DNA of 64,000 nt from Gaiellaceae bacterium (GTDB taxonomy: Bacteria; Actinomycetota; Thermoleophilia; Gaiellales; Gaiellaceae), in the NCBI GenBank assembly GCA_051002595.1, contig JBPCMD010000069.1, positions 13,544 to 77,543 of the forward strand. Direction: 5' to 3'. This document shows positions 1,745 through 55,231 of this stretch, one piece after another. Each line of letters begins with the position of its first letter. Position 1 is the stretch's first letter. The position numbers were made by a program, and so were the translations under genes. The notes under the pieces are model-generated. The model did not search any database. It saw nothing but the letters and a program-made list of their open reading frames with translations, and was not told the origin of the DNA.

Positions 1745-1752
1745 GACGCTCC

Positions 1753-2841: not shown

Positions 2842-2895
2842 GGGCGCGCCGGATCGTACCTTGAGCCTTCGCCTGGTCAGGTACCGTCCCGGCCG

Positions 2896-4963: not shown

Positions 4964-4979
4964 GAGGGCCGAAACGCCT

Positions 4980-5009
4980 GGTGACAGTCACCTGCGGGTG
5001 ACAGTCACC
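4980..5009. repeat. Two tandem copies of the 13-bp near-palindrome GGTGACAGTCACC (17-bp period); can fold into one 13-bp hairpin
   Basis: Read directly: GGTGACAGTCACC tgcg GGTGACAGTCACC. It lies between the convergent purE and recQ genes. The second copy contains the recQ stop codon. Confidence 0.7.
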
Positions 5010-7035: not shown

Positions 7036-7054
7036 AGTTGTTACGTCTTTCGCT

Positions 7055-7954: not shown

Positions 7955-8008
7955 GGGGCTCGGACCGTTTCGGCGAGGAACCTCCGGCTCCTCTCTTGGA
8001 CGCTGCTC

Positions 8009-9779: not shown

Positions 9780-9876
9780 TCCACGGATTTCGCCCTCGGA
9801 GACCCTTGGCCTGCCGCATACCCCGTCCCGTTCGGCCACTTGCGACGCTCGCCCGAGTCGCATACAGTAGGCTTGT

Positions 9877-26278: not shown

Positions 26279-29203
26279 GTGCCAGCCGCCAGAAAGCACG
26301 TGACTCTCGCCATCCTGTCTATCGCTCTGGTCGCCGCATCAGGTCTTGCGGGGGCAGCGGGCGGCGTTCAGCTGCCGGGCAAGCGGGACCGCGAGGCCCC
26401 GTCGGCCCCATTCAACGTTCGGGTGACGTCCTCTTCATTGACGAGCGTGTCGCTCGAATGGGACGCCGCGACCGACAATGTCGGAGTCGCGTTCTATTAC
26501 GTCTACGTCGACGCGCAGCGCGCGCGTGTGTCCGGGACGAGCTACACGGCGACGAATCTCGAGTGTGGTCAGAGCATCGGTGTGTGGATCGTTGCTTACG
26601 ACTACGCCCTCAACCGCTCGCCTTCAGCGGCGGCGACGGTTTCCACTGCAGCCTGCCCAGACACACAGCCGCCGACGCGACCAACAAATTTCAGGCAGGC
26701 GGCGACGACGCAGACCGCGGTCGTGCTCGAATGGGACCGGTCGTCGGACGATGTCGGCGTCGTGGGATACGGTGTCTACCGGGACCAGCTCCCTGTTCAG
26801 TCGCCTTCCGATCCGACCGTGACGCTGACTGGGCTCGTCTGTAATTCGACCTACGATTTTCAGGTCGACGCAGTAGACGCCGCGGGCAACCGCTCCGAGC
26901 GCCACTCGGTATGGGTGCAGACGGCTCCCTGCTCTGAGGTCCCTCCACCCCCGTCCGACGCCACACCACCGGCGCAACCCGCAGACCTCAGGGTCGCTGG
27001 TGTCACCGCGGCGTCTGTCTCTTTGGCGTGGGATTCCGCGACCGACAACGTCGGCGTGGTGGGCTATGACGTGTACCGAAACGGTACGAAGATGGCACAT
27101 GTCACGTCGACGTCCTCCCTTCAGGAAGGCCTTGCTTGCAGCACCAACTACTGGTTCGGCGTCGAGGCCGTCGATGGCGCGGGCAATCGCTCAGCCCGCG
27201 TGCGCACCAACGCGACGACGTCTGCGTGCCAGTCTCCGCCGACGAGCTGGGCATTCTGCGCCGGCGAGGGTCAGCACTGCGGATTCTCCGGTACCAAGGA
27301 AGTCCGGTACGGGCAGAGCGGCACGTTCACGCCTGCGGCGGTCTTCAGCAACGGCGTGTGGTGCACCAACGCCGTCTTCGGCGATCCACTCCCCAACGCC
27401 TTCAAGCGCTGCGAGTACCGTGACCTCGGCGGAACGCCTCCACCGCCGTCCGATGCTCCTCCTGCTGACCAGTCGCCGCCGTCCGAGCCAACCGGTTTGG
27501 CGATCGCGAGCGTCACGCAGGCGTCCGTGTCACTTACGTGGCGAGCGTCGACGGACAACGTCGGAGTCAGCGGGTACGGGGTCTATCTGAACGGCAACAG
27601 CGTTCTGACGGCGAACCAGCTGGGCGCGACCCTGTCGGCGCTTGCATGTGGAACGGCGTTCACGTTCGCCGTCGATGCCTTCGACGGCGCTGGCAACCGC
27701 TCGACGAAGGCGGAGGTCACCGCGTCGACAGCCGCTTGTGCCCCGGATGGTCAGGCGCCTACAGCTCCGACGGGCGTCGTTGCGTCGGCGCGTACGGCGA
27801 CCAGCATCGCGCTCACCTGGTCGGCGTCGAGGGACAACGTCGCAGTCGTCGGCTACGGCCTCTATCGCGGAGGCGCGTTGACGGGCACTTCACCGACGAC
27901 GACTGGGATCTTCTCCGGCCTGACCTGCAACACGAACTACACCCTTGCCGTTGACGCATTCGATCTGGCCGGGAACCGATCCGGCAAGACGACGGTCCTG
28001 GTTGCGACGACCGAATGCCCGGACACCAGCGCACCCTCCTCCCCCACGGGGCTGGCGGTTTCGGACGTGACGACGTCGAGCTTGACCCTCAGGTGGAACG
28101 CTTCGTCGGACAACGTCGGCGTCACGGGGTACGACGTCGCTCGGAACGGTACGAAGATGGAGTCGACCGCATCGACGACGTCGAGCCAGACCGGCCTCGC
28201 CTGCGGAACCTCCTACTGGTTCGGAGTGGAGGCCCTTGACGCTGCGGGCAATCGCTCTCCGCGAGTGAGCGTGAACGCAACGACCAGCTCGTGCCCCGCG
28301 CCGCCGCCTCCGCCCTCGTCGGGCCGCCACGTCTACTGCTTCGGCGACCCGACTTACAGTGGAAGTGGATGGCAATACGACGCGACCTCGAACGGGTCCG
28401 TGCGTCAAGGCTATGCCCAGACGTTGAACCAGCGAGTCGGGTACGACAACTCGGTCGACGTCATGCGCTCCGTCGGCTGTCAAACCGTCAAGGCCGAGAT
28501 CCAGCCTCGCGATCCGGACGCGAACGGAGGCACGGCAAACCAACGTGCCCAGCTGTACATGAGTGATGGCCAGCTCGCGAAGTACGGGAACCAGCCCTCT
28601 CTCGACGCGAACGTAGGAAAGACGAGCTGGTACGGGTTCGCGTTCTCGACGAATTCAGGGTACGTGCCGCACTATGACCCGCTGTTCGGCAACTGGAACT
28701 CGATCTTCTCGTGGCACAACGCCCCGATCAACGGCGTGTGGGGGCACCTGGCGAACATCATGCTCGAAGTCGCGACCATCGGCCCCGCCAGCGGAACGGA
28801 GTACAGGTGTGGAGCCCCGTCCACGAGGCTGTCGCAGGCCCGTTTGCAGATTCAGCTCAACGGCGGCGATCAAGCGGACCCGAACTGGCCGAACGAAAGC
28901 GGAAGGCTGACCTGCCGCCGTTATCTGGGTCCGGTGTTCGAGCCGGGGCGTCGGTACCGAGTAGAGATGCTGGTGACGTGGGGAGCACACATGAACGGGT
29001 CGCTCCAGGTTTGGATCGACGGCACCAAGTTCGTGGACGTCGCGGGCATCAGTAACGTCTGGTACAGCGGTTCCACGATCGACAACGGGATCTATCCGGT
29101 CTTCGAGAACTACCGCGCTTACGACACTTCGCTCCCGACGAACACCGTGTACTACGGCGGCCTCGTCAAAGGTTCAGCGCGCTCGGACGTCGCGATTCCG
29201 TAG
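26279..29203 (+). CDS. Secreted multi-Fn3 protein with C-terminal polysaccharide-lyase-like (heparin-lyase-I/concanavalin-type) domain
   Basis: Signal peptide MPAARKHVTLAILSIALVAASGLAGAAG. Six modules follow the pattern P..P..L.......S..L.W..S.DNVGV.GY.VY. The C-terminal ~300 aa (QRAQLYMSD, WYGFAF, FSWHN, LQVWIDG, GIYPVFENYR) resemble the polysaccharide-lyase family from memory. Confidence 0.7.
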   Translation: MPAARKHVTLAILSIALVAASGLAGAAGGVQLPGKRDREAPSAPFNVRVTSSSLTSVSLEWDAATDNVGVAFYYVYVDAQRARVSGTSYTATNLECGQSIGVWIVAYDYALNRSPSAAATVSTAACPDTQPPTRPTNFRQAATTQTAVVLEWDRSSDDVGVVGYGVYRDQLPVQSPSDPTVTLTGLVCNSTYDFQVDAVDAAGNRSERHSVWVQTAPCSEVPPPPSDATPPAQPADLRVAGVTAASVSLAWDSATDNVGVVGYDVYRNGTKMAHVTSTSSLQEGLACSTNYWFGVEAVDGAGNRSARVRTNATTSACQSPPTSWAFCAGEGQHCGFSGTKEVRYGQSGTFTPAAVFSNGVWCTNAVFGDPLPNAFKRCEYRDLGGTPPPPSDAPPADQSPPSEPTGLAIASVTQASVSLTWRASTDNVGVSGYGVYLNGNSVLTANQLGATLSALACGTAFTFAVDAFDGAGNRSTKAEVTASTAACAPDGQAPTAPTGVVASARTATSIALTWSASRDNVAVVGYGLYRGGALTGTSPTTTGIFSGLTCNTNYTLAVDAFDLAGNRSGKTTVLVATTECPDTSAPSSPTGLAVSDVTTSSLTLRWNASSDNVGVTGYDVARNGTKMESTASTTSSQTGLACGTSYWFGVEALDAAGNRSPRVSVNATTSSCPAPPPPPSSGRHVYCFGDPTYSGSGWQYDATSNGSVRQGYAQTLNQRVGYDNSVDVMRSVGCQTVKAEIQPRDPDANGGTANQRAQLYMSDGQLAKYGNQPSLDANVGKTSWYGFAFSTNSGYVPHYDPLFGNWNSIFSWHNAPINGVWGHLANIMLEVATIGPASGTEYRCGAPSTRLSQARLQIQLNGGDQADPNWPNESGRLTCRRYLGPVFEPGRRYRVEMLVTWGAHMNGSLQVWIDGTKFVDVAGISNVWYSGSTIDNGIYPVFENYRAYDTSLPTNTVYYGGLVKGSARSDVAIP
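26399..28290 (+). repeat. Array of six Fn3-like coding modules, with a Cys-containing ~65-aa insert after module 3
   Basis: The motif (L/V)xW..(A/S)(T/S)DNVGVxGYxVY recurs six times in the translation. The insert SWAFCAGEGQHCGF...WCTNAVFGDP...KRCEY spans about 27230-27430. Confidence 0.7.
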
Positions 29204-30010: not shown

Positions 30011-31912
30011 CTACGAGCCGGCGACGACGGTCGCTGTCGGGGCCTCGTCTCCCAGGAGCTCCAGGGCGGACGGCGGCTCAGCCGTGACCTGATCGACATT
30101 TGCACGCAACCAAAGCTCGAGCGAAGCGAGGGTGAACAGCTTCAGGTCCTCACCGCGGGCGACAATCGACGCAACCTCGTCGTGCTTGACGAGTCCGCGA
30201 TCCAGCGCACGGTCGGAGAGCACGAGGCTTGGAAGCACATTTCCTGGGCCACTCGACAAGAACGACACCACCGGAACCGGAAAGCCGCGTTTGGGCTGGT
30301 TCAGGAGCTCTGGGGGAAGTAGGTCGCGAACGGCCGCTCGGAACACGGCCTTCGCCTCGCGGAGACCGCTGCGTGCCGATGCCGGAACATTCGCGACCCG
30401 TTCGACGACGTTATGGTCGAGGAGTGGCATGCGGCCTTCGACGGATGCAGCCATCAACACCTTGTCCGAACGGATCAGCATGTTGTCCGGCAGGTAGGTG
30501 AGAAAATCGCCGACCAGCATCTGTCGGCCGGGGTCGAGGTTGGAGTATGGCTCGAGCGCTCGCCGGAGTGGTTCCGTGAGCATCTCCACCGGCACACGCC
30601 TGTCCAGCAGCCGCCCTAGCTCGGCAGGAGAGAAGGTACGGAACCAGGAAGCCCAGCGGAGCAACGGATCACGAATACGCATCGTCTCGATGGCACGATC
30701 CAGCCTCCGATGCGAGCGTCGAGTCGACAGCGCGCGCACGGCGAGGCGAAGAGCCGTCGCGCTCGCCGGACCGCCCGCGCGCAGGAGGCGCTCCGCGCGG
30801 TACTTCGGATAGCCGCCGAACACTTCGTCACCACCGTCGCCGGTGAGCACGACCTTGACATGGCGACCGGCGAGCTCTGCGAGCAGCAGAAGCGGGACCT
30901 CCGATGGCTCAGCGATCGGCTCGTCTCGGTACCACGAGAGCCGCGGTAACGCGCGCGCGAAATCGTGTGGCTCGACGACGACCTCGTGGTGGTCACTGCC
31001 GTACCGTCGAGAAACGAGCCTTGCGAGGCTCCGCTCGTCGTAGACCCGATCCCGGAACCCGATGGTGAACGTCGAAACGCGCTCTGCCCCGGCCTCGTGC
31101 ATCAGGCCCAGCACTGCGCTCGAGTCGACTCCGCCGGACAGAAGCACGCCCAGCGGGACGTCACTCATCAGACGCCGCCGGACCGCGTCGCGGAGGAGGC
31201 TACGAAGGTCGCGGGGATCGAGTGGGCTGAGAGTCGCGGGCTCGAGTTGCCAGTAGCGACGACGACTGATTCTCGTTCGGTCGTACACGAGAAGCGAGCC
31301 CGGCTCGAGCTTCTCGACGCCGCGGACGAGCGTCGCCGGAGCGGTGACATAGCGTTGAAACAGGTATTCGGGTACGCGATCCTCGGCGAGCTCAGGCCGC
31401 CGGCCCGTGACGAGGAGCACCGAGCGGATGTCCGAGCCGAAGGCGAGACCGCCATCGCCCTGCGCGACATAGAGCGGTTTCTTGCCGACACGGTCGCGTG
31501 CGAGTAGCAGACGTTGACGGGGCTCGTCCCAGAGCGCGAATGCAAACATCCCGTCGAGCCGCGGGAGAAGATCGTCTGCCCACTCCTCGTAGCCGTGCAC
31601 GAGCACTTCGCCGTCAGTGAGCGTGTGGAAGCGGTGTCCGGCGCGCTCGAGCTCGCGACGAAGATCGAGGTAATTCCAGATCTCGCCGTTGTAGACCGTG
31701 AGAATCGTGCGGTCTTCGTTGTAGATCGGTTGCGCACCGCCTTCGATATCAATGATGCTGAGGCGGGTGTGGCCGAGCCCGACCGAGTCTGTGACGTAGA
31801 CGCCCGAACCGTCGGGACCCCGGTGAGCGAGCGCACTTGTCGCCTGCTCGACCCGCGAGCGAGCCGGGGGGGCGGCGTCGCGTGCCGCGACGAAGCCGCA
31901 GATGCCGCACAC
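30011..31912 (-). CDS. Asparagine synthase-family glutamine amidotransferase (copy 1)
   Basis: N-terminal nucleophile MCGICG, PP-loop LLSGGVDSSAV, 633 aa. The polysaccharide-locus context suggests a sugar or uronate amidotransferase instead of housekeeping AsnB. Confidence 0.85.
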   Translation of the reverse strand: MCGICGFVAARDAAPPARSRVEQATSALAHRGPDGSGVYVTDSVGLGHTRLSIIDIEGGAQPIYNEDRTILTVYNGEIWNYLDLRRELERAGHRFHTLTDGEVLVHGYEEWADDLLPRLDGMFAFALWDEPRQRLLLARDRVGKKPLYVAQGDGGLAFGSDIRSVLLVTGRRPELAEDRVPEYLFQRYVTAPATLVRGVEKLEPGSLLVYDRTRISRRRYWQLEPATLSPLDPRDLRSLLRDAVRRRLMSDVPLGVLLSGGVDSSAVLGLMHEAGAERVSTFTIGFRDRVYDERSLARLVSRRYGSDHHEVVVEPHDFARALPRLSWYRDEPIAEPSEVPLLLLAELAGRHVKVVLTGDGGDEVFGGYPKYRAERLLRAGGPASATALRLAVRALSTRRSHRRLDRAIETMRIRDPLLRWASWFRTFSPAELGRLLDRRVPVEMLTEPLRRALEPYSNLDPGRQMLVGDFLTYLPDNMLIRSDKVLMAASVEGRMPLLDHNVVERVANVPASARSGLREAKAVFRAAVRDLLPPELLNQPKRGFPVPVVSFLSSGPGNVLPSLVLSDRALDRGLVKHDEVASIVARGEDLKLFTLASLELWLRANVDQVTAEPPSALELLGDEAPTATVVAGS

Positions 31913-31913
31913 C

Positions 31914-33752
31914 TTAGACCTCCACCTCCGCTGTCTCCCCTCGCCATCGTTCGACGATCCGTATCCGCTTCGGCTGCGTAACCTCGACTGTCACCGTTTC
32001 GCCGACCGTACTAAGCGTAATCGTGACAGGCAGTCCGGCAAGCGAGACGGCTGTCGCGAACACGACTCTTTCTCCGCGCGTCGTCCACGTAACGCGCGGC
32101 GCCTCCTCGACACTCGAGTACCGAGGCGAGCACGGACCCCGTCCCGCAAGCCGAACCGCATCCGGCGCTGAGGCAACGGCAATCGCCGGCTCGGCCGAGG
32201 TGTGCCACACCAGTGTCGCCTCTCGTGGGACGTCGGAGACGATGCGATCCAGAATCACCAGCACATCGGGCTTGACGAAGACGACGCTTCGAGTGTGGCG
32301 GCTGCCGCGGTAGCCGTCGTGGGAGGCACGAACCACATCGAACGCCTCCGAAAGCCGGGAAGCCTCGAGAATCGTCCGAAATCGATGACCCCAGAGGTGT
32401 GGCCCGCGGGACTGTGCCTGGCTTGCGTCGTCGACCACGACGGTGTTGTGCGCTGCGGTGGAACGGAGATATTCACGGACGAGGCCGGGAGCGTACGTGC
32501 CGGTTCCGCTGTCGCGGAGCAGAGACTCTCCGGCGCTGTCGACGAGCACGGCAAGCGCGTCGGCGTGGCCGTGTGCGGCGAGCGAGCCGAACCCGAGCTC
32601 GCCCACGTCGAACACGATCCGCGTTCCTCGGGCGCGCAGTATCGCGTACCCGCTTTCGCGGCGGATCGTCGATCGGTCGTATCGCGGGCGGTCCGCGCTG
32701 CCGACCAGCGCATGCACTCGAGCTGAAATCACGGATGCGCGCCGTGGCTCGAAGTACTCGAGTCGCAACATGCGGTCCTCGGCGTCGTCGCCGACCGGCG
32801 GTGGCTCACCCTCGTCGTTTGCAACAGCGGCCAGCCACTCGAGCATCGCCTCCAGCCGAGGCTTCAGCCGGCCGAGCGGCTTCTCGGCACTTCTGGCGAG
32901 GATGGCCGCTACCCCGAGGAGCTCGAGGACGTAGAGGAAGTAGCCGCCGGCCTGCTCGCGGCTGCCACCATCGGCGTACGTCTGCCTGTCCACTTGTTGC
33001 TCGAGCTCGCGCCAGAGCGGCGCCCATTCGAGCCCTGCCGCGTCCAGGCGCGCCGCGGCCAACAGACCGACGAGCTCTGCAATTCGGTGATTGTTCGCGG
33101 AGGAGAAGCGAGACGGTCGAGCTGCGAGAAAATCGCACTGACGTGTGAACGCCTCGTCCAGCCGGGCGAGCTCGCTGGGTTCGAGCGCCGACTGCACGAG
33201 GGGCATCGCGAACGTCCAGCCGACCAGCCGGTGCGCCGTTTCATAGCCGGAACTCCAACCCGGACCACGGGCCGGAGGATTGCGCACCGTCCAATCCAGC
33301 AGGTGCTCGCCGGCGAGCCGCGCCCAATCGTTGCGGCCTGCGAGTGCGGCACCGGCGCCCAACGGAACGATGTGCTGCTGGCGATGAAGCTCCCAGAGCG
33401 GCTTTCGGTCGCCCGGCCAGCTCCGATCCGAGCCGTCGGGTAACGCGCTGTCAGCGAGTGGATCGGAGAGCCAGTCCGGCCGGCGTAGGTCGATCCGAAT
33501 CGGCAGTCCCCACAGCTCGAGCTGCCCATCGGCGATTCGCGCAGCAGCTGAGACCAACGAGTCTTGCTGCGGCTCGATGAGACGGAAAAGCGCTTCTGAC
33601 CAGCTTGGGTCGTGCCACAGCGCCTGCGACTCGCGGCGCCTCCGTCGTCCTCGAACCGGCCTTGCGGCCGTGGTGCCGGCACGCCACAGCACCTCGCGCG
33701 TCGACATCGCGCCCAGGCGTGCGAGATACCAACGCCATCTCACGGTTCGCAC
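31914..33752 (-). CDS. Heparinase II/III-like protein, no signal peptide
   Basis: GSLAAHGHADALAVLV and STAAHNTVVVDD motifs. The N-terminus MRTVRWRWYLARLGAMSTREV has no hydrophobic segment. The stop lies 1 nt before the AsnB start. Confidence 0.75.
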   Translation of the reverse strand: MRTVRWRWYLARLGAMSTREVLWRAGTTAARPVRGRRRRRESQALWHDPSWSEALFRLIEPQQDSLVSAAARIADGQLELWGLPIRIDLRRPDWLSDPLADSALPDGSDRSWPGDRKPLWELHRQQHIVPLGAGAALAGRNDWARLAGEHLLDWTVRNPPARGPGWSSGYETAHRLVGWTFAMPLVQSALEPSELARLDEAFTRQCDFLAARPSRFSSANNHRIAELVGLLAAARLDAAGLEWAPLWRELEQQVDRQTYADGGSREQAGGYFLYVLELLGVAAILARSAEKPLGRLKPRLEAMLEWLAAVANDEGEPPPVGDDAEDRMLRLEYFEPRRASVISARVHALVGSADRPRYDRSTIRRESGYAILRARGTRIVFDVGELGFGSLAAHGHADALAVLVDSAGESLLRDSGTGTYAPGLVREYLRSTAAHNTVVVDDASQAQSRGPHLWGHRFRTILEASRLSEAFDVVRASHDGYRGSRHTRSVVFVKPDVLVILDRIVSDVPREATLVWHTSAEPAIAVASAPDAVRLAGRGPCSPRYSSVEEAPRVTWTTRGERVVFATAVSLAGLPVTITLSTVGETVTVEVTQPKRIRIVERWRGETAEVEV

Positions 33753-34045: not shown

Positions 34046-35869
34046 ATGCAACGCCTAGGTCCATCCAGTCGGCGCGAGCGTGCGAGCTCCGCCGTCTTGC
34101 TCGTACTTCTCGTTGCGCTCCTCGTGGTCGTCGTCGGCATTGGCGCGTACGGCATCCCCTCTCATGCCAGCTCGAACATCGTCACTTGGGACACGCAATC
34201 TCAGTTCGCGTCCGCCGCTCGCCATGGCACAACCGCGAACGCCGACGGGACTGTGACCTTGGAGGGCCGGCCGACCCTGCGGACGCCCCGGCAGAGTGGG
34301 TCGATGGGGCCTCTCCGACGGCTCCGCTCGAATCCTCGCTACTTCACCGCGGACGGCAAGACGGCGGTTTATCTCACCGGATCGCACACGTGGATCAACC
34401 TCCCGGATGGATCTCGGACCGACCCTCCCGCTGCGTTCGATTTTCCCTCGTATCTCGCAGACCTCGAGCGTTGGCATCACAACTTCATACGACTGTGGGC
34501 CTGGGACGTGACGTTCGAGTCTTCTCGTGGCTACCGCTTCACCTACTCGCCACAGCCGTATGTTCGAAGCGGCCCGGGGCGAGCAATCGACGGCCTGCCC
34601 AAATTCGACCTGACTCGCTTCAACCAGGCCTATTTCGATCGGCTGCGCAGCCGTGTCGTACGAGCCCGCCGCGCCGGGATTTACGTTGCGGTCATGCTCT
34701 TCGAGGGCTACATGGCCGACAAGGGTCCTCTCCCTTCCGTGTATCAGGGTCATCCGTTCGCAGCAGAGAACAACGTCAACGCCATCGACGGCGACGTCGA
34801 CAACGATGGTCGTCCCCGCGAGGTGTACCTGCTCCCCGGAGAAGGCGGACTTCGGAAGGTGTCGCAGATTCAAAAGGCATATGTTCGCAAGGTCATCGAC
34901 ACGGTGAATGATCTCGACAATGTGTTGTACGAGATCGCGAACGAGGCTTCGTCTTCGTCGACCGCGTGGCAGTACGACCTGATCGGATACATCAAGCGCT
35001 ACGAAGCCCGAAAGCGTAAGCAGCATCCAGTCGGAATGACGTTCCAGTTTGCCGATGGCAGGAATGCGACGCTCATCGAAAGCGCAGCGGACTGGGTGTC
35101 ACCGCGCACGAGAATCGACAACCCCCCAGCTGCCAAGGGCGCGAAGGTTGTTCTGTCCGACAGCGATCATCTCTGCGGTATCTGTGCGGCGGCGAACGGT
35201 GACTGGGCGTGGAGGGAGTTCGCGAGGGGGCGCAATCCGATCTACATGGATGCGTACGCAGATCCTTACTGGAGCTCGCTGACCGGGTCGCGCGACAGTG
35301 CTCGAAGAGGTCTAGGGGAAACACGGAGGCTGGCCGACAGGATCGACCTGGCGTCGATGAGGCCACAGGGCAGACTCGCGTCGACCGGCTACGTACTCTC
35401 GAACCCTGGACGCGAATATGTCGTCTACCAACCCGCCCGCGGATCCTTCCGGCTCCATCTCGCCCAGCAAGGTGCGACGTCGTTCACGGTCGATTGGATC
35501 TCTCCCGGTTCGGCTGCTACGTCACGGGAGACGATTGCCGGCGGTCGTGAGGTCACGTTGACGCCTCCCTTCGATACAGCGGTCGCGGCGCACATTCGCG
35601 CAAACACGCATCGCACTGCAGGAGATTTCGTCGTCACTCACGATGCCGGCAAGCCGAGACGGTGGACGCGGGTGACGTCCAGGGCCACGATCCCGGCTCG
35701 ATCGCGCATCCTCATCGCGACACGCTCGTCGAACGACCGGGTGACATGGTCGCCCTGGCGCCCCAGGGCCCGAGGTCTGCCAGAGGGCCGATATGTCCAG
35801 ATTCGCGTCGGCTTCTCTACAACCGACGCAGACCGCACGCCGATCCTCGAAGCACTGACACTCGAGTGA
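34046..35869 (+). CDS. Membrane-anchored/secreted clan GH-A (GH5-like TIM-barrel) glycoside hydrolase
   Basis: N-terminal anchor AVLLVLLVALLVVVVGIGAYG. HNFIRLWAW and VLYEIANEAS (NE catalytic acid/base motif). A C-terminal beta-sandwich-like tail follows. Confidence 0.6.
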   Translation: MQRLGPSSRRERASSAVLLVLLVALLVVVVGIGAYGIPSHASSNIVTWDTQSQFASAARHGTTANADGTVTLEGRPTLRTPRQSGSMGPLRRLRSNPRYFTADGKTAVYLTGSHTWINLPDGSRTDPPAAFDFPSYLADLERWHHNFIRLWAWDVTFESSRGYRFTYSPQPYVRSGPGRAIDGLPKFDLTRFNQAYFDRLRSRVVRARRAGIYVAVMLFEGYMADKGPLPSVYQGHPFAAENNVNAIDGDVDNDGRPREVYLLPGEGGLRKVSQIQKAYVRKVIDTVNDLDNVLYEIANEASSSSTAWQYDLIGYIKRYEARKRKQHPVGMTFQFADGRNATLIESAADWVSPRTRIDNPPAAKGAKVVLSDSDHLCGICAAANGDWAWREFARGRNPIYMDAYADPYWSSLTGSRDSARRGLGETRRLADRIDLASMRPQGRLASTGYVLSNPGREYVVYQPARGSFRLHLAQQGATSFTVDWISPGSAATSRETIAGGREVTLTPPFDTAVAAHIRANTHRTAGDFVVTHDAGKPRRWTRVTSRATIPARSRILIATRSSNDRVTWSPWRPRARGLPEGRYVQIRVGFSTTDADRTPILEALTLE

Positions 35870-35915
35870 TCTGCGTTTGCTCCGCGTGCCGAGCGGCATC
35901 GGTTACGCTTGCCGT

Positions 35916-36548
35916 GTGAACGCAGAGGACGCGCAGGGCAAGCGCTCCGGCGTTCCAAGACGCCGTCCGTACCCGCCGGGTGGAGCGGCCGCAGGCCTTC
36001 CGATACGCGAGGTCTTGTCCATCATGCGCGAAGATTGGGAAACCCATCGTCGCGATGTGACCCAGCCTGGGCTCCATGCCCTGCTCTTGCAGCGCTATGC
36101 GGTCTGGCGGCTCGGCCTTCCGTCCGGTCCCAGACGAAAGGCATTGTCGGTGATCCGCCACATCCTCTGGACGCTCGTCAGGAATCTGTACGGGATCGAG
36201 TTGCACGACACGGCAAGAATCGGTAGAAAAGTGCGAATCGCGCATCAGGGCCGCGTCATCATCGACGGCGAGGCGGCCATCGGCGACGGTTGCCTGATTC
36301 GTCACAATGTGACGATCGGCCGACTTCACGACGAGGGAGGCGCTCCACGGGTTGGCGACAACGTGGACATCGCGCCTGGAGCCGTGCTCGTCGGTGACAT
36401 CACGATCGGGGATCGCGCACGCATCGGGCCGAACGCCGTGGTCGTCGTCGATGTTCCGGCGGATACCACTGCGTTCGCTCCGCCGGCGCGACAACTCCCC
36501 CACGCGGGCAGCATGCCTCGCTCGAGCGGGAAGGCGGACAGGTCATAG
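35916..36548 (+). CDS. Hexapeptide-repeat acyltransferase (serine O-acetyltransferase/WcaB-like)
   Basis: ORF 35877..36548. It has an N-terminal SAT-like helical region. The left-handed beta-helix repeats are IGRKVRIAHQGRVIIDGEAAIGDGCLIRHNVTIG...VGDNVDIAPGAVLVGDITIGDRARIGPNAVV. The start is GTG 35916 or TTG 35877. Confidence 0.75.
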   Translation: MNAEDAQGKRSGVPRRRPYPPGGAAAGLPIREVLSIMREDWETHRRDVTQPGLHALLLQRYAVWRLGLPSGPRRKALSVIRHILWTLVRNLYGIELHDTARIGRKVRIAHQGRVIIDGEAAIGDGCLIRHNVTIGRLHDEGGAPRVGDNVDIAPGAVLVGDITIGDRARIGPNAVVVVDVPADTTAFAPPARQLPHAGSMPRSSGKADRS

Positions 36549-36628
36549 GACGGAGTGCGCGCAGCGAGTCGTCCCTCCATCTGCCGGCGCTCGACCATCT
36601 CGCTGCGGGATTCGTTCGCTCTGCGGCA

Positions 36629-38176
36629 ATGTATCCGCACCGTCCCGCGCTCATGCTCGACGACGAGTCGTGGACCTACGACGACCTCCTGCGCGCAGCC
36701 ACGGCCATCGCCGCCGTTTTGAGCGAGCATACTCCCGAAAACAACCCTCCCTGGACAGCGGTGTTCGCGCATCGGTCTTTTCCCGCTTTCGCCGGCGTCC
36801 TCGGCGTTCTTCTTCGCGGCCACGGCTACGTACCGTTGAACCGGAAACTTCCCGCAATGCGTACCAAAGCGATGTTCGCCCGATCGGGCTGTCGGGCGCT
36901 CGTGGTCGACAATGAATCAGTCGTGCAGCTCGACGAGATCCTCGACGGCGTCGTGGACGAAATCGTGATCGTCGCGCCCGACCTTCCGGACACGCGCGAG
37001 CTCCAGAGCCGCCACCCCGGCCACGTCTTCTTCGGTCGAGATGCCCTCTCCTATGTCGATGCTCCGGTTCTCCGTCGCCCGGAATCCGACGATGTTGCCT
37101 ATCTCCTGTTCACCTCGGGTAGCACCGGAGAGCCGAAGGGTGTGATGGTCGCGCACCGCAACGTCGCACCGTTCGTGCGCGCAATGGCAGATCGGTACGG
37201 TCTGAACGAGGAGGACCGCTGCTCACAGACCTTCGACCTCACGTTCGACCTCTCGGTATTCGACCTCTTCGTCGCCTGGGAGCGAGGGGCGTGTGTCTGC
37301 TGCTTGGCAGACAAGGCGTTACTCAAGCCTGGCAATTTCATACGGGACAACGAGCTGACCGTATGGTTCTCCGTCCCGTCCACAGGGATGTTCCTACAGC
37401 GGTTCGGGATGCTCAAACCCGGCTCGTATCCGTCGCTCCGTTGGAGCCTGTTCTGCGGGGAGGCGCTTCCCGTCGACCTGGCCGAGGCGTGGGCGGCTGC
37501 GGCGCCGCATTCGGTCGTAGAAAACCTCTATGGGCCGACAGAAGCAACAATCGCGTGCACGGTGTATCGCTGGGCCGGCGATCGCACGCGCCACGAAGCA
37601 CGACTCGGCCTGGTCCCTATCGGGCACCCAACCGAAAAGATGTCCGCAGTTGTGGTCGACGGCCACCTGCAGGAGGTCGGAGTGGAAGAAGAAGGTGAGC
37701 TCCTGGTGGCCGGACATCAGGTCGCGTTGGGGTATCTGGACGATCCAGAGCGAACGAACGCTGCGTTCGTCGTGCCGCCGAACCGAGCCGACGTGCACTA
37801 CCGGACCGGAGACCGTGTAACACGAGACGCGAACGGCGTGCTCCATTATCTGGGTCGGCTCGATCATCAGGTTCAAGTGCACGGCCACCGAGTCGAGCTC
37901 GGAGAGATCGAGGCTGCGATTCGCGAGGTGACGGGCGCGGAGGCAGTGGCGGTCGGCTGGCCGATGACGGACAGCGGCGTCGCCGGAATTGTCGCGTTTG
38001 TGGCAGGGGAACATGCACTCGAACTCGCTTCGTTACGGGTGGCGCTCGCGGCTCGACTCCCCGACTACATGCTGCCCCGGGAGGTTCACATCCTGTCTGA
38101 GCTGCCTTTGAACTCGAACGGAAAGTTCGATCGGGTCGCACTTCGTTCTCGTCTCGAGGCTCATGACGACAACTGA
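36629..38176 (+). CDS. DltA-like adenylation enzyme (amino acid--carrier protein ligase)
   Basis: YLLFTSGSTGEPKGV (A3), TFDLTFDLSVFDLF (A4, close to the DltA FDLSVMDLY), YGPTEAT, YRTGD, GRLDHQVQVHGHRVELGEIE and NSNGKFDR (A10). Confidence 0.8.
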   Translation: MYPHRPALMLDDESWTYDDLLRAATAIAAVLSEHTPENNPPWTAVFAHRSFPAFAGVLGVLLRGHGYVPLNRKLPAMRTKAMFARSGCRALVVDNESVVQLDEILDGVVDEIVIVAPDLPDTRELQSRHPGHVFFGRDALSYVDAPVLRRPESDDVAYLLFTSGSTGEPKGVMVAHRNVAPFVRAMADRYGLNEEDRCSQTFDLTFDLSVFDLFVAWERGACVCCLADKALLKPGNFIRDNELTVWFSVPSTGMFLQRFGMLKPGSYPSLRWSLFCGEALPVDLAEAWAAAAPHSVVENLYGPTEATIACTVYRWAGDRTRHEARLGLVPIGHPTEKMSAVVVDGHLQEVGVEEEGELLVAGHQVALGYLDDPERTNAAFVVPPNRADVHYRTGDRVTRDANGVLHYLGRLDHQVQVHGHRVELGEIEAAIREVTGAEAVAVGWPMTDSGVAGIVAFVAGEHALELASLRVALAARLPDYMLPREVHILSELPLNSNGKFDRVALRSRLEAHDDN

Positions 38177-38447
38177 GGACGACGTCCGCGCGTTCATCCT
38201 CGCGCACCTCGAGACCCGCCTCACAGAGGTTGGAGTCGACGGTACGAAGCTCAGTGACGAGAGCGACCTCTTCGCCGAGGGTGTCGTTGATTCACTCGGC
38301 GTGGTGGAAGTGATCGCGGCAGTCTCCGACCGGTATGGAGTCGAAGACGATTGGGATGACTACGATCCGAACGACTTGCTCGTGATCGGTGCGTTTTGCC
38401 GTTTTGTGGCAGACAAGGCGAGGCAGCGGGCACGTACGCAGCCGTGA
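38163..38447 (+). CDS. Carrier protein (DltC/ACP-like, phosphopantetheine attachment site)
   Basis: 94 aa. GVVDSLGVVEVI is a DSL Ser motif. It overlaps the adenylation gene by 14 nt. Confidence 0.75.
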   Translation: MTTTEDDVRAFILAHLETRLTEVGVDGTKLSDESDLFAEGVVDSLGVVEVIAAVSDRYGVEDDWDDYDPNDLLVIGAFCRFVADKARQRARTQP

Positions 38448-39046
38448 TCGAACTGCGCTCGGTCGACGAGCGGCTAGCACAGCGAATGGCTCCACAGCTC
38501 GCGCGGTGGGCCTACGAGGCGGGATCTCCGCTCGACGAATGGCGGTTTGGGGACGAGAGTCGAGCGCTGGATCTTCTCACCACTTGGATATTTCGTTCCT
38601 CGTCAGAAGTTGCCTACGGGCGCTGGCAGGTCGCCTTCGACGGCGACGCGCCGAAGGGTGCGTATGTCGCAATGCCGGAGCCTGACCTGGTCGCGGCCCG
38701 ACGAGCCGATCTCCTCGCTCTCGTCACGTTGGCGGACGGGGTGGCTGATCTACGTGAACGACTAGCGGAGATCAGAGATCTGTTCATCCCCGTGGAGGCT
38801 GCCGACTTCTACCTGAGTCGGATCGTGGTCGAGTCCGACGCACGTGGACGTGGTCTCGGCGCACAATTGCTTGCCGCCGTCATCGCCACCGCCATTTGCA
38901 TCGGCGCCACGGCTGTGCGCGCAGACGTCTCCGCGGGGAATGAAGCTGCGATAGCCCTCTACCGATCACTCGGATTCAACATCGCGCCGGAGCGGATCAG
39001 CAAACGTGCTGGCATTTCCTATCGCGCTGTCAAGCTCGCAATTTGA
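38444..39046 (+). CDS. GNAT-family acyltransferase
   Basis: In-frame GTG at 38444 of ORF 38396..39046 overlaps the carrier-protein stop (GTGA). The acyl-CoA-site-type motif is VVESDARGRGLGAQLL, and NEAAIALYRSLGF is present. Confidence 0.7.
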   Translation: MIELRSVDERLAQRMAPQLARWAYEAGSPLDEWRFGDESRALDLLTTWIFRSSSEVAYGRWQVAFDGDAPKGAYVAMPEPDLVAARRADLLALVTLADGVADLRERLAEIRDLFIPVEAADFYLSRIVVESDARGRGLGAQLLAAVIATAICIGATAVRADVSAGNEAAIALYRSLGFNIAPERISKRAGISYRAVKLAI

Positions 39047-39070
39047 TCCGAGAACGTTCTCTCATGTTCT

Positions 39071-40627
39071 GTGGGCTTGCCGATTCATGGAACCGGCGGT
39101 TCCCGTATCGTCGAGACGCCCGTGCAGGAGCCCAGCGACCTAAGAGCAGCCTCGCTCTCCGGCGTTCGTTGGGTTTCCCTGGCGCGCCTGATAGCAGAGA
39201 TGTTGACGGTTGGATCGAGCGTTGTCCTCGCCCGTCTGATACCGCCCGCTGAGTTCGGCCGTGCCGCGATCGCGTACGGTTTCGTCGCTATCGCCCTGGC
39301 GGTCGCCTGGGCGGGCTTTGGTTCGGCGCTCGTCCAGATGCGGTCGATCGACCGGGAAGACGTCGAGGTGGCCACGTTTCTAAGCGTCGGAACCGGCGGC
39401 GCTCTGGCACTTGTCATTCCGTTCCTACTCGCGCCGTACGTCATAGCGCCACTTTTCGGCGAACGCGTTGCGTACCTGCTGGTTCTCGCGTCTCCGACCT
39501 TCCTCGCTTCCGGGCTCGGTGCCGTTCCGACTGCCATCTTGCAGCGCCAGCTCAAGTTTCGGAGGCTCTCGGAGATCGAGATTGTGGCCCTGGTGGCAGG
39601 GATTGCAGCAGCGATCGTGTTGGCAGCGGTCGGTGAACTTGACGGCGAAGCGATCGTCCTGGGAGGCGTGACCACTGCCTGGGTCGGAACGGTGCAAACG
39701 CTTCTGGTCGTCCGACCGGCGATTCCCCGCTGGCGACGTCACCGAGCCGGAGGTATTGCGAGCTTCGGAGCATTCGCAGCTCTCACGGCCGTCATCGGCA
39801 CGCTTTTCAACAACGTCGATTACGCTATTCTCGGAGCGCGCCTGTCGCCACAAGATGTCGGGTTCTATTGGCGCGCCTACCAGGTCGGTGTCGAGTACCA
39901 GAGCAAGATCAGTGGAATCGTGCTCCGGCTCGCGTTTCCGATCTTCTCGCGTACCGCGGATCTCGGCGAGATGCGGAGACTGCGCGGAAAGATGCTCCGC
40001 GCTCAGACGATCGCGATCTATCCCGTGTTAACGACGTTGATCGCACTCGCCCCCGAGGTCGTTCCGCTGGCTTACGGGCCCGCGTGGGAGCCAGCCGTGT
40101 TTCCGACCCAGGTGCTCGCCGCGGCCGGGATGGCGGCCGCCGCGGTGGCTGGCTCGGCGCAGATGGCATTTGCTGCCGGCAAACCTCGTGCGGTGCTTTG
40201 GTTCTTCATCGCGCTTCTCGCTGGATATGTCGTCGTCGTGACGTGGTCGAGCGCCTTTGGGTTGCGTACGGTCGTGATTGCTGTCGCAGCTTACCAGGTA
40301 GTTTTCGCTGTGCTTCAATTCTACTCCCTCGATCACCGTCAAATGGGTATTCCTCTGCGTGACTCGTGGAACGGAATATTCCCTGCATTGGCCGCAAGTC
40401 TCATCTCACTCAGCGCGACCTATCCGACCGTGCGTCTCATTTCAGCGGCCGGAGCCCTCGACGTCGTCGTCATTCTCGTTGGCGGTATAGTTGCAGTCTC
40501 GATGTACGCGCTCGCCCTTCGAGTTCTGTTTCCTGTCAGCTGGCACCAAACAGCCGCGTTGGCGCGAGCACTTGTTGTACGAGGAGGCGGCACGCGACCG
40601 GCAGACATCGACAAAATCGATGTTTGA
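39071..40627 (+). CDS. wzx: Wzx-type oligosaccharide flippase (MOP/PST family)
   Basis: About 12-14 TM segments. The N-terminal GVRWVSLARLIAEMLTVGSSVVLARLIPPAEFG is typical of polysaccharide biosynthesis protein flippases. The start is GTG 39071 or GTG 39122. Confidence 0.75.
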   Translation: MGLPIHGTGGSRIVETPVQEPSDLRAASLSGVRWVSLARLIAEMLTVGSSVVLARLIPPAEFGRAAIAYGFVAIALAVAWAGFGSALVQMRSIDREDVEVATFLSVGTGGALALVIPFLLAPYVIAPLFGERVAYLLVLASPTFLASGLGAVPTAILQRQLKFRRLSEIEIVALVAGIAAAIVLAAVGELDGEAIVLGGVTTAWVGTVQTLLVVRPAIPRWRRHRAGGIASFGAFAALTAVIGTLFNNVDYAILGARLSPQDVGFYWRAYQVGVEYQSKISGIVLRLAFPIFSRTADLGEMRRLRGKMLRAQTIAIYPVLTTLIALAPEVVPLAYGPAWEPAVFPTQVLAAAGMAAAAVAGSAQMAFAAGKPRAVLWFFIALLAGYVVVVTWSSAFGLRTVVIAVAAYQVVFAVLQFYSLDHRQMGIPLRDSWNGIFPALAASLISLSATYPTVRLISAAGALDVVVILVGGIVAVSMYALALRVLFPVSWHQTAALARALVVRGGGTRPADIDKIDV

Positions 40628-45373: not shown

Positions 45374-47137
45374 ATGATAGTCAGAGACGAAAGCTCATTC
45401 AGAGAGGTGCTGACCAATCCGCCGAAGACGCTGGCGGAGTACCTGGCGATCGTGCGGCGTCGCAAGTGGTTCATCATCGCGGTGCCGCTCTTGACCGCCT
45501 TGACGGCGTTCAGTCTCTCGCAGACCCAGACTCCGGTCTACAAGGCTGACGCTCAGATCCTCGTAAGTAGGGCAGGCATCGTAACGGCGATTGCAAATGT
45601 CCAGGATCCGGCCACGTACGACGCTACGCGTTACTTGACCACGCAGAGCACGATCGCACGTTCACCCGAGCTTGCTGCTCGAGTGGTTGCGGCAGCGAAG
45701 GTCCCCGACGTGACGCCTGGCCTCTTGCTCGGCATCTCCGCGGTCGCCGCCCGGACAGACGCGGACCTGCTCGACTTCTCGGTCTCCTATTCAGATCCGA
45801 ACGACGCAGTCCTACTCGTCAACGCGTATGCGCGCCAGTTCGTGCGTTACAAGACGGCGCTCGACACAGCGAAGGTCAACGATGCCTTGAGGGTGATCCG
45901 AGCACAGCTCGCGACCTTACAGGCCCAGGATAGGACGAACTCTCCGGCATACGACACGTTGATCCAATACAAGGGTCAGCTGGAGACGATCGGCAAGCTC
46001 CAAGCGGACAACACGAGCGTCCTCCGTGTCGCCGAGGGGGCGGGCCAGATCAGTCCTCGCCCCAAGCAGAACGTCCTTCTCGGCGCGCTCATCGGCCTCG
46101 TTCTCGGGTTTGGGCTCGCGATTCTGTTGGAAGCGCTTGACCGAAGAGTTCGCAGCGGCGAGGAGGTCGAAGCGATCCTCGGGCTACCTCTCCTTGGACG
46201 AGTCTCTCCCCCTCCGCGCTGGATGGGAAAGAAGGACACGCTAGTCATGCTCTCCGAGCCGATGAGTCCCGGCGCGGAGACGTTCAGGAAGCTCAGGACG
46301 ACGATCGAGTTCGCCAGCAGGGACCGTGGCGCCCGGACGTTCATGTTCACGTCGAGCGTCCAACGCGAAGGAAAGTCGACGACCGTTGCCAACCTTGCTG
46401 TCGCGTTTGCCAGGGCAGGTCGTCGTGTCGCACTCGTCGATCTCGACCTCCGTCGGCCATCGCTGCACTCGTTTTTCGACGTGCGCACGGAGCACGGGAT
46501 CGCGGATGTCATTGTCAACGACGAGAAGGTCGCTCAGGTGCTCCAACAGGTCACGTTGCCGCCTGCAAATCCGTCAGCGGTGGCTGCACTGGGCAACGGC
46601 CGTGCACCTCGCTCACGATGGGCATCTCCGGGACCGGCGTTTGCATCCGCCTCCCTTGGATCGACGGAGCGGCCGGAAGACCTCGATACGTTTCATTTTC
46701 TGGCGTCTGGAAGGGTGCACGCCGACGGGGAGTTCTTCCAGAGCGAGCGCGTTTCCGCAGTCCTCCAAGAACTCGGTGAGGTGTTCGACATCGTGCTCGT
46801 GGATGCTCCTCCATTCCTGGCTGTAGGCGATGCGATGAGCCTTACGGCAAGTGTCGATGCGATCGTCGTCGTCACCCGCCTCGAGACTCAGCATCCGGTC
46901 CTGCGGGAGCTGGCACGCGAGTTGCGCAATTGCGAGGCTCCGGCTCTCGGCTTCATTCTCACCGGCGTCCCTCCGCGTCATGGGCTCGGATACGGGTACG
47001 GATACGGGTACGGGTACAGCATGAATCGGGATCGGCAGGGCCCGATCACGCATGACATGGAAGATGAAATCACGTCGTTCCCCCAGCCCCTGAGCCCAGG
47101 ACAGCCCTGGGGAGATGTCGCTCGCGGGCGTCCGTAG
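45374..47137 (+). CDS. Wzz-like chain-length determinant fused to BY-kinase, with C-terminal Tyr cluster
   Basis: N-terminal LAEYLAIVRRRKWFIIAVPLL (Wzz TM1), a second TM segment, Walker A SSVQREGKST, Walker A' VALVDLDLRRP, Walker B VLVDAPP, and the tail GYGYGYGYGYS. Confidence 0.8.
   Translation: MIVRDESSFREVLTNPPKTLAEYLAIVRRRKWFIIAVPLLTALTAFSLSQTQTPVYKADAQILVSRAGIVTAIANVQDPATYDATRYLTTQSTIARSPELAARVVAAAKVPDVTPGLLLGISAVAARTDADLLDFSVSYSDPNDAVLLVNAYARQFVRYKTALDTAKVNDALRVIRAQLATLQAQDRTNSPAYDTLIQYKGQLETIGKLQADNTSVLRVAEGAGQISPRPKQNVLLGALIGLVLGFGLAILLEALDRRVRSGEEVEAILGLPLLGRVSPPPRWMGKKDTLVMLSEPMSPGAETFRKLRTTIEFASRDRGARTFMFTSSVQREGKSTTVANLAVAFARAGRRVALVDLDLRRPSLHSFFDVRTEHGIADVIVNDEKVAQVLQQVTLPPANPSAVAALGNGRAPRSRWASPGPAFASASLGSTERPEDLDTFHFLASGRVHADGEFFQSERVSAVLQELGEVFDIVLVDAPPFLAVGDAMSLTASVDAIVVVTRLETQHPVLRELARELRNCEAPALGFILTGVPPRHGLGYGYGYGYGYSMNRDRQGPITHDMEDEITSFPQPLSPGQPWGDVARGRP
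46988..47017 (+). repeat. (GGN-TAC)x5 tandem repeat encoding the GYGYGYGYGY phospho-acceptor cluster
   Basis: Read directly: gga tac ggg tac gga tac ggg tac ggg tac. Confidence 0.85.
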
Positions 47138-50923: not shown

Positions 50924-51013
50924 CGTTTCAGTATGGCGACCGGTCAGTCCGGTTCCGACGTTGAGCCCGAAAGCGATCCTCGTAAGCACTCGCTGCGTTT
51001 GCCCGACGCCGGA

Positions 51014-55050: not shown

Positions 55051-55231
55051 CGTTCCAAGCGTAGCCAGCTGAGAGGAATATTCATGAAGTCCAGCTGATC
55101 GCTTGGGAGCTCGGCCCCCGCGGCGCTTCGAAGTCTGTTCTTGAGGCACACTGTACTTTTCGGGCGGAGTCGTCTTATCTCTGTAGTGGGAGATAGTGGC
55201 TGGGGATCATTTTTCCGAGGATGAGGACTGC

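Follow-up and report, generated by a model that had tools for sequence, protein, structure and literature searches.

Two cases of carrier-dependent envelope aminoacylation are known: the Dlt system, which attaches D-alanine to teichoic acids, and the Alm system, which attaches glycine to lipid A. Each relies on membrane transferases and is important for charge, for resistance to antimicrobial peptides, and for recognition by phages or the immune system. LpxA and LpxD are left-handed beta-helix (LbH) enzymes that take acyl groups from the acyl carrier protein (ACP). In the altemicidin pathway, SbzL, SbzG and SbzI are a ligase, a carrier and a carrier-dependent GNAT, and SbzI accepts aminoacyl-carriers (PMC11685415). 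In Vibrio cholerae O1, the ligase-like gene wbeL of the tetronate set (wbeK-O, VC0248-VC0252) is needed for perosamine N-acylation (PMC3441752). Here we analyzed a 64,000-nucleotide stretch from a Gaiellaceae bacterium (GenBank assembly GCA_051002595.1, contig JBPCMD010000069.1, positions 13,544 to 77,543 of the forward strand; hereafter the window), in which an LbH acyltransferase, an amino-acid adenylation (A) protein, a carrier protein and a GNAT are encoded beside a Wzx flippase. Judging from sequence, gene fusions and gene neighbourhoods, we see about an even chance that this cassette is a cytoplasmic, carrier-dependent module that decorates the repeat unit of an exopolysaccharide with a small amino acid, the LbH enzyme transferring the aminoacyl group and the GNAT capping it.

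Organization of the cassette

The cassette and the adjoining flippase gene were laid out as follows.

36024..36548, plus strand: LbH (hexapeptide) acyltransferase of the CysE/EpsC/WcaB type, 174 aa (Hexapep, 44.5 bits against a cut-off of 27)
36398..38176 (open frame), plus strand: stand-alone A protein, 515 aa from ATG 36629 (TIGR01733)
38163..38447, plus strand: carrier protein, 94 aa, predicted phosphopantetheine site Ser44 (codon 38292) (PP-binding)
38444..39046, plus strand: GNAT, 200 aa, of a distinct subfamily termed GNAT200 (Acetyltransf_1)
39071..40627, plus strand: Wzx/MOP flippase, directly downstream of the GNAT (Polysacc_synt_3)

The genes stood head-to-tail in the order LbH, A, carrier, GNAT, Wzx. 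The A and carrier genes overlapped by 14 nt, the GTG start of the GNAT gene sat in a GTGA overlap with the carrier stop codon, and 24 nt separated the GNAT gene from Wzx. The LbH open reading frame (ORF) was open from TTG 35877, with ATG 36024 as the likely start, and the flippase scored 168 bits with Polysacc_synt_3 and 165 bits with the MOP flippase model NF007773, the latter under its cut-off. An initial annotation, made from the letters of the window, had reported the two overlaps, the adenylation and carrier motifs, and the LbH and Wzx genes on either side; all were present at the sites it gave, and profile hidden Markov model (HMM) annotation of the cassette ORFs agreed with the LbH, A, carrier and GNAT identities. 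The cassette is a real, conserved feature. Its gene order recurred on independent contigs (related loci L001/L002, L172, L169 and L170) with proteins 45-81% identical, showing that the arrangement is not due to chance.

The start of the A gene was irregular. A conserved N-terminal peptide of the A family, ALDHLAAGFVRSAA, was encoded upstream of ATG 36629 (frame 36398-36628), and no ATG, GTG or TTG was present in the A frame between 36629 and the stop at 36395. Candidate non-canonical starts were ATA 36545, which overlaps the LbH stop (ATAG), and CTG 36581. Translation may begin at such a codon, the sequence may contain an error, or the protein may be shortened at its N-terminus; P0002 and P0003, the two A homologues listed as closest, were also called short. 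As the A frame extends back to 36398 and the conserved peptide is encoded 5' of ATG 36629, the LbH and A genes are probably not separated by the 80 nt that this ATG would imply.

A membrane transferase of the known kinds was searched for in two ways. An HMM for DltB-like MBOAT proteins, built from related loci, had no match in the six-frame translation of the window, and Pfam searches of the ~60 larger window ORFs recovered no MBOAT, DltD or LpxL-type (AlmG) protein; ORFs outside that set could hide one. The setting was thus as initially described, a Wzx/Wzy exopolysaccharide locus with soluble acyltransferases only and no DltB, DltD or AlmG type found in the window.

Conserved core and interchangeable fourth gene

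The window's own clade comprised eight loci. Identities to the window A protein, and to the window LbH (BLASTP) in six of the loci, are given below together with the fourth gene of each cassette.

Window: A 100%, LbH 100%, fourth gene GNAT200
L001/L002: A 78%, LbH 81%, fourth gene GNAT200
L172: A 74%, a 174-aa Hexapep gene at the LbH position, fourth gene GNAT200
L168: A 71%, LbH 78%, fourth gene an Fmt/ArnA-like formyltransferase whose overlap with the carrier stop is exactly that of the GNAT
L169: A 64%, LbH 59%, fourth gene GNAT200
L171: A 63%, LbH 62%, fourth gene a methyltransferase
L170: A 62%, LbH 61%, fourth gene GNAT200
L005: A 59%, LbH 52%, no fourth gene

The set LbH-A-carrier was found in all eight loci; the fourth gene was a GNAT in five, a formyltransferase in one, a methyltransferase in one and lacking in one. 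LbH-A-carrier is the invariant core of this clade, and the fourth position is held by interchangeable group-transfer enzymes. LbH orthologues with 52-81% identity lay directly upstream of the A-carrier pair in L001, L168, L169, L170, L171 and L005. Since the GNAT was absent from L168, L171 and L005, the LbH was the sole remaining candidate to unload the carrier in those loci. The initial annotation had proposed that a soluble GNAT replaces the membrane transferase; because the GNAT was swappable within the clade, it is probably not that stand-in. The flippase gene followed the cassette directly in L172 and L168 and with one gene between in L001; in L169-L171 it lay ahead of the cassette, adjacent or at most a few genes away, and it was not near the cassette in L005. 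Glycosyltransferase genes were usually near the clade cassettes.

Partner enzymes in the wider family

The A family consists of stand-alone proteins of ~530 aa that are 45-85% identical. At least 591 of 600 pattern matches were confirmed in a scan of one genome per species, and the best 80 of these at least 591 came from Actinomycetota, Acidobacteriota, Myxococcota, Planctomycetota, Verrucomicrobiota, Nitrospirota and Proteobacteria (including Bradyrhizobium and Geobacter). Among the matches listed, the nearest relatives in the species-genome scan were from uncultured Actinomycetes and Thermoleophilia/Solirubrobacterales, with at most 59% identity. ORFs were called in 84 loci, HMMs were built, and neighbouring genes were clustered and the clusters named by Pfam/NCBIfam; 82 loci were non-redundant. 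Neighbours within a radius of 5 kb of the A gene were counted in these 82.

LbH1, an LbH protein of 170-250 aa: 26/82 loci
AurF-like di-iron oxygenase: 17/82
FkbH: 15/82
NMT-like double GNAT, ~333 aa: 13/82
Luciferase-like oxygenase: 13/82
Polysaccharide deacetylase: 13/82
Carbamoyltransferase: 10/82
DltB-like MBOAT: 8/82
GNAT200, the GNAT type of the window: 7/82

A carrier, counted with an HMM built from a carrier-only cluster free of LbH fusions, was present in 63 of the 82 loci. The A-carrier pair is therefore a stable module with variable partners, among which the LbH was the commonest enzyme and the GNAT a minority. GNAT200 was found beside a second transferase in a Nitrospira locus (L026, A-carrier-GNAT-LbH1) and beside a DltB-like MBOAT in Phycisphaeraceae (L031=L087, MBOAT-A-carrier-GNAT) and Myxococcales (L080, MBOAT-A-GNAT); on the P0140 contig, GNAT200 was accompanied by a Hexapep gene after the phosphopantetheinyl transferase. 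LbH1 and MBOAT never occurred together in the 82 loci. The co-occurrence of GNAT200 with LbH1 or MBOATs is more readily explained by an add-on step than by an alternative transferase.

Fusions of a carrier to an LbH domain stood beside the orthologous A gene in actinobacterial metagenome-assembled genomes.

L003/L006, 9590-10543: carrier-LbH fusion, 317 aa
L009, 11551-12732: carrier-LbH fusion, 393 aa
L017, 8964-9842, minus strand: carrier-LbH fusion, 292 aa

The LbH had initially been treated as a bystander; that role agrees poorly with the commonest partner of the A-carrier family, carrier-fused in three genomes. From its position, the fusions and the neighbourhoods, the LbH is proposed as the carrier-dependent transferase, being a likelier one than the GNAT. 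What points to the carrier as donor for the window-type LbH in particular is its invariant position, the fused LbH domains belonging to other subtypes. The window LbH fell under the equivalog cut-offs of three models (EpsC 107.1 vs 150, CysE 87.9 vs 210.65, WcaB 59.9 vs 194.65), and the LpxA and LpxD models gave only 20-35 bits, too little to indicate orthology. The idea that the window LbH is of the same subtype as the carrier-fused LbH was rejected, as the two shared 32% identity over 91 residues only.

Several loci of the family had contents of their own. L085 (745-7567) and L037 (5629-13084) each held two tandem A genes, a carrier, GNAT200 and a methyltransferase; a CMP-sugar synthetase gene adjoined both cassettes and NeuB adjoined that of L085, a nonulosonic acid gene context. 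The arrangement suggests nonulosonic acids bearing aminoacyl or dipeptidyl N-acyl groups. In L037, the pocket code of the first A protein was a different one, DVFSLAQIVK. The genes at 928-7977 of the P0140 contig encoded carrier-GNAT200, a class IV (D-amino-acid/branched-chain) aminotransferase, 2-oxoacid dehydrogenase E1/E2, ACPS and Hexapep proteins, and the aminotransferase hints at a supply of D-amino acid. In L087 (=L031), the genes at 3291-8594 followed a Dlt-like order: a 357-aa unknown, a 43-aa ORF in a DltX-like position, the DltB-like MBOAT, A, carrier and GNAT200. Recurring sub-types were seen in related loci such as L014, L020, L022, L023, L030, L043, L047, L048, L051, L052 and L055. 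An FkbH-domain protein (glyceryl-carrier loading; 210.7 bits vs 146.65) accompanied A-carrier in ~15 loci, and the AurF-like, carbamoyltransferase and luciferase-like partners marked other sub-types. The NMT/FemX-like double GNAT (333 aa) was encoded directly 3' of the carrier gene in most loci having it, and LbH1 was also present in 8 of those 13.

Adenylation protein and carrier

The A protein carried the motifs LFTSGSTGEPKG (residues 160-171), TFDLTFDLSVFDLF (201-214), YRTGD (391-395) and NSNGKFDR (495-502). It scored 219 bits with Pfam AMP-binding and passed the amino-acid adenylation model TIGR01733 (344.9 bits vs a cut-off of 317.4). It failed the DltA equivalog models (TIGR01734, 264.8 vs 559.85; NF003417, 270.6 vs 476), the exosortase-associated acyl-CoA ligase model TIGR03098 (202.9 vs 592.35), and all acyl-CoA, fatty-acyl-AMP and aryl ligase models (best 100-160 bits vs cut-offs of 375-1221). 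With all such NCBIfam cut-offs missed, a fatty-acyl or aryl ligase identity, the grouping that would have spoken against the initial annotation, was ruled out. The Asp that binds the alpha-amino group (D235 of PheA) corresponded to D207 and the A10 lysine (K517) to K499; both were invariant in a 30-sequence alignment, and in a survey of 85 sequences the Asp was found in all codes and the Lys in all but one incomplete code.

The best single-domain sequence matches in the PDB were VinM (8K4R, 308 bits), AlmE (4OXI, 295 bits) and 6AKD (271 bits), which we take to be IdnL7; DltA (195 bits) and PheA (186 bits) matched more weakly. The nearest solved relatives (VinM, AlmE, IdnL7 and module 2 of LgrA) activate Ala or Gly. 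Ten specificity positions were read from pairwise alignments.

Window A protein: DLFSLCLIAK
AlmE (substrate Gly): DLHTFCLIAK
Bacillus cereus DltA (substrate D-Ala): DLMSLCTVAK

The window code was identical to that of AlmE at 7/10 positions and likewise to that of B. cereus DltA at 7/10, which, with the invariant alpha-amino Asp, bore out the description of the pair as Dlt/Alm-like. Because of this resemblance, the substrate is most likely a small amino acid of the glycine/alanine type, Gly or D-Ala. Across the window and the 84 loci the code was essentially DL[F/H]SLCLIAK (DLFSLCLIAK in 43 sequences, DLHSLCLIAK in 14), and the whole A family would probably share one substrate.

The carrier matched PP-binding with 25.1 bits (cut-off 20.8). 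Ser44, in the motif GVVDSLGVVE, and Gly40 were invariant in 40/40 aligned homologues, which identifies the protein by sequence as a phosphopantetheine carrier with Ser44 as the predicted site.

The GNAT200 family

The GNAT matched Acetyltransf_1 with 48.2 bits (cut-off 20.7), and its RGRGLGAQLL motif began at residue 134. Its AlphaFold2 model had a pLDDT of 94, and Foldseek returned many GNATs at E about 1e-10. The best NCBIfam model was that of RimI, the S18 N-alpha-acetyltransferase, at 35.4 bits vs a cut-off of 86.4, a resemblance only. The public gene call gives 186 aa from ATG 38486. However, GTG 38444 is the better start because the 14 residues it adds were conserved in homologues and formed a confident first beta-strand in the model. 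Word-indexed protein searches gave only 11 and then 21 relatives, and a metagenome scan with the generic GNAT motif A[IM]xLYRxxGF gave only unrelated GNAT C-terminal cores; HMMER was needed to find the family and its fusions, and an exhaustive profile search gave ~255 GNAT200 clusters at E<=1e-30.

GNAT200 adjoined the A gene on every examined contig long enough to read the neighbours. Natural carrier-GNAT200 fusions were found in P0220 (PP-binding 39 bits) and P0168 (33.5 bits), with weaker cases in P0152, P0236 and P0273. The initial annotation's expectation that the GNAT is conserved beside the pair was therefore supported by these contigs and fusions; it failed in L168, L171 and L005, where the GNAT was replaced or absent. 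P0222, an 834-aa fusion of a Wzz/BY-kinase protein to GNAT200, links the family to polysaccharide export machinery.

Since both LbH and GNAT domains occur fused to a carrier, both enzyme types are expected to act on the carrier-bound group. The GNAT fusions are compatible with either role of the carrier, bringing the donor or bringing the acceptor. Carrier-dependent GNATs have been recognized by a hydrophobic alpha4/alpha5 surface that replaces the polar residues binding adenine (PMC11685415). The corresponding helix of the window GNAT, AQLLAAVIATAICIG, was hydrophobic, and distant family members were charged there, so that the feature was not consistent across the family. A natural carrier-GNAT fusion was modelled by AlphaFold2 with a pTM of 0.68 from five sequences, and its superposition on SbzG-SbzI (8ZT4) was poor (TM 0.45/0.51, rmsd 9.7 A). 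On the sequence evidence, the GNAT probably acetylates the alpha-amine of the amino acid on the carrier; alternatively, it would itself be the transferase.

Proposed mechanism and alternative explanations

In the proposed mechanism, the A protein, placed by its family and pocket, would adenylate an amino acid presumed to be of the Gly or D-Ala type and load it as a thioester on the Ser44-phosphopantetheine of the carrier. The GNAT would then use acetyl-CoA to acetylate the free alpha-amine, either on the carrier or just after transfer. The LbH would move the aminoacyl or N-acetylaminoacyl group from the carrier thioester, in the manner of LpxA and LpxD, to a sugar linked to a nucleotide or to undecaprenyl-PP on the cytoplasmic face, with a hydroxyl or amino group as acceptor, and the neighbouring Wzx would flip the decorated unit. 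Among its annotated ORFs, the window locus has neither a sugar aminotransferase nor a 4,6-dehydratase or a deacetylase, and therefore the only obvious amine for an N-acetyltransferase would be the amino acid's own. The F domain of LgrA N-formylates a carrier-bound amino acid, which gives a precedent for such capping chemistry, by the GNAT here and by the formyltransferase of L168. Bacterial polysaccharides are documented to contain amino sugars with N-acetyl-D-alanyl, N-acetyl-L-alanyl and N-acetylglycyl substituents, and also sugar amines with N-formyl groups (PMC3210612).

Some observations weigh against this assignment of roles. The window LbH is of the CysE/WcaB type, whose members use acetyl-CoA, and is of another subtype than the carrier-fused LbH. 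Around the A-carrier-GNAT200 genes of L037/L085, L066/L070 and L086, no other recognizable acyltransferase was found within ~5 kb, so the GNAT may itself off-load the carrier there. The formyltransferase of L168 and the methyltransferase of L171 could act on sugars instead of the amino acid, and no phosphopantetheinyl transferase gene was found in the window. A carrier-dependent GNAT transferase, moreover, has a precedent in SbzI (PMC11685415), and by our analysis the carrier-GNAT fusions would fit that role equally well. These points bring in the model of the initial annotation, by which the GNAT unloads the carrier, passing the aminoacyl group to a sugar linked to a nucleotide or a lipid, and the LbH O-acetylates the same polysaccharide as an ordinary acetyl-CoA-dependent enzyme. 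It agrees with the adjacency of GNAT200 to A-carrier on every contig where the neighbours could be read, with the translational coupling of the GNAT to the carrier, with natural carrier-GNAT fusions whose domains are ordered as in the active engineered SbzG-SbzI fusion, and with SbzL/SbzG/SbzI as a characterized ligase/carrier/GNAT trio, as well as with the several loci where GNAT200 was the only visible acyltransferase and the CysE/WcaB resemblance of the LbH. However, the loci that keep LbH-A-carrier without a GNAT (L168, L171 and L005) leave the LbH as the only unloading candidate, GNAT200 accompanies MBOAT or LbH1 and does not exclude them, LbH-carrier fusions exist, and the two-domain fit on SbzG-SbzI was poor. 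We consider this model unlikely, though a serious contender.

The preferred reading, with the LbH as transferase and the GNAT as capping enzyme, also has to be set against a division of labour in which both enzymes unload the same aminoacyl-carrier, to two acceptor positions or one to the sugar and the other to another molecule. Carrier fusions are known for both enzyme types, and either type can accompany A-carrier on its own, while in other genomes both do; yet such dual off-loading is less economical than one transferase with a tailoring step, and it fails to explain the formyltransferase and methyltransferase at the GNAT position in sister loci. We find it doubtful, with a rather low probability. 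That the cassette does not decorate a polysaccharide at all, and instead makes a small diffusible product as a minimal NRPS-like system or activates a carboxylate other than an amino acid, would accord with the frequency of stand-alone A and carrier pairs in secondary metabolism and with the macrolactam pathways of VinM and IdnL7, the closest solved relatives. It is very improbable, given Wzx beside or within a few genes of the cassette in the window, L001, L172, L168, L169, L170 and L171 (not in L005), the Wzz/BY-kinase-GNAT200 fusion P0222, the lack of condensation, thioesterase or PKS domains nearby, the invariant alpha-amino-binding Asp and the passed TIGR01733 model. The initial interpretation was right in part, in placing the system in the cytoplasm with soluble enzymes and outside Dlt and Alm, and probably wrong on which enzyme transfers.

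More tentatively, and with a probability that we place below even, the cassette may be one case of a widespread, modular kind of glycan tailoring. A Gly/D-Ala-type amino acid on a dedicated carrier would first receive one of several interchangeable caps (N-acetyl by GNATs, N-formyl by formyltransferases, and, in other lineages, those of methyl- and carbamoyltransferases and AurF-like oxygenases) and then be passed to polysaccharides by interchangeable transferases (LbH, DltB-like MBOAT, or NMT/FemX-like double GNATs), as a route, of which no description was found, to the N-acetyl-alanyl, N-acetyl-glycyl and related substituents of O-antigens and capsules. The A-carrier family was usually found in polysaccharide loci, with soluble LbH or GNAT enzymes as partners. 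If true, genes could be assigned to aminoacyl and N-acyl-aminoacyl substituents catalogued for decades on O-antigens and capsules, acyl-carrier-dependent LbH chemistry would be extended from fatty acids to amino acids, and a swappable capping step would become available for glycoengineering. Annotations such as 'serine acetyltransferase', 'RimI-like acetylase' and 'amino acid adenylation domain protein' would then belong to one pathway.

Surrounding exopolysaccharide locus

The region at 26-58 kb of the window was a Wzx/Wzy-type exopolysaccharide locus. It held GT2 and GT4 glycosyltransferases, two Wzz/BY-kinase-like genes, a Wzy-like gene, a Bac_transf initiating transferase, a UDP-sugar dehydrogenase, two AsnB-like amidotransferases, methyltransferases, a heparinase II/III-like protein and a polysaccharide lyase. 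Features outside the cassette were located as follows.

30011-31912, 49028-50989 and 52200-53516, all minus strand: two AsnB-like glutamine amidotransferases and the UDP-sugar 6-dehydrogenase
26279-29203, 31914-33752 (minus strand) and 34046-35869: secreted-looking polysaccharide lyase with fn3 repeats, heparinase II/III-like protein and DUF6298/apiosidase-like protein, flanking the cassette
45374-47137, 55196-56848 and 58245-60556: the two Wzz/BY-kinase-like genes, and an ABC-2 permease with a Wzt-type ATPase directly after the initiating transferase
7055-8425 and 8946-9863, both minus strand: two phage-integrase-family (tyrosine recombinase) genes, close together

The amidotransferase and dehydrogenase genes suggest amidated uronic acids in the polymer, and the lyase, heparinase-like and apiosidase-like proteins may process or degrade it. 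Next to the Wzx/Wzy locus there seems to be a second glycan system, one dependent on an ABC transporter. The recombinase pair lay upstream of housekeeping genes for a RecQ-like helicase, citrate synthase and PEP carboxykinase.

Comparison with known systems

Among the systems compared, SbzL/SbzG/SbzI shares the three protein types A (or ligase), carrier and GNAT with the cassette, and the engineered SbzG-SbzI fusion was the best PDB match of the natural carrier-GNAT200 fusions. It differs in serving a secondary-metabolite pathway with a 2-sulfamoylacetyl donor, in a generic GNAT fold similarity only (TM about 0.6), and in that the GNAT is dispensable in the sister loci of the window. The initial annotation knew of no characterized adenylation/carrier/GNAT trio; as the Sbz trio has been characterized in natural-product biosynthesis, that claim needs to be qualified. 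For polysaccharides, no characterized system combining adenylation and carrier proteins with an LbH or GNAT was found in the open-access literature, a weak negative. VinM/VinL and IdnL7 resemble the A-carrier pair in that the activating enzymes stand alone, take Ala or another small amino acid as substrate, and use a discrete carrier. However, these systems and LgrA belong to assembly-line pathways, and no condensation or PKS machinery was found at the window cassette.

The nearest genetically defined counterpart in polysaccharide biosynthesis is the tetronate set of V. cholerae O1, which also holds an ACP gene and an LbH acetyltransferase-like gene. LbH acyltransferases such as LpxA and LpxD place carrier-borne acyl groups on sugars, but the donors in these systems are fatty acyl or hydroxy-acyl groups and not amino acids.

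In Dlt as in the cassette, a stand-alone A protein charges a small carrier with a small amino acid so that a glycopolymer of the cell envelope is modified. The pocket likeness to DltA includes the cysteine of the FCGE motif, and the 8 of 82 family loci with DltB-like MBOATs add to the resemblance. By contrast, the window A protein missed the DltA equivalog, no MBOAT or DltD was found in the window, and the partners were soluble LbH and GNAT proteins in a Wzx/Wzy locus, so transfer is expected in the cytoplasm. Alm is likewise close, with AlmE among the nearest solved relatives and its code differing at 3 positions from that of the window and at 2 from DLHSLCLIAK, the second commonest code of the family. 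It is unlike the cassette in that no LpxL-like AlmG was found in the scanned window ORFs and the proposed target is a polysaccharide unit, not lipid A. With the DltA cut-off missed and the defining membrane partners not found among the scanned window ORFs, the cassette is not a member of Dlt or Alm. By sequence, it resembles both in the first two steps, belongs to neither, and is best described as a predicted variant of carrier-dependent envelope aminoacylation.

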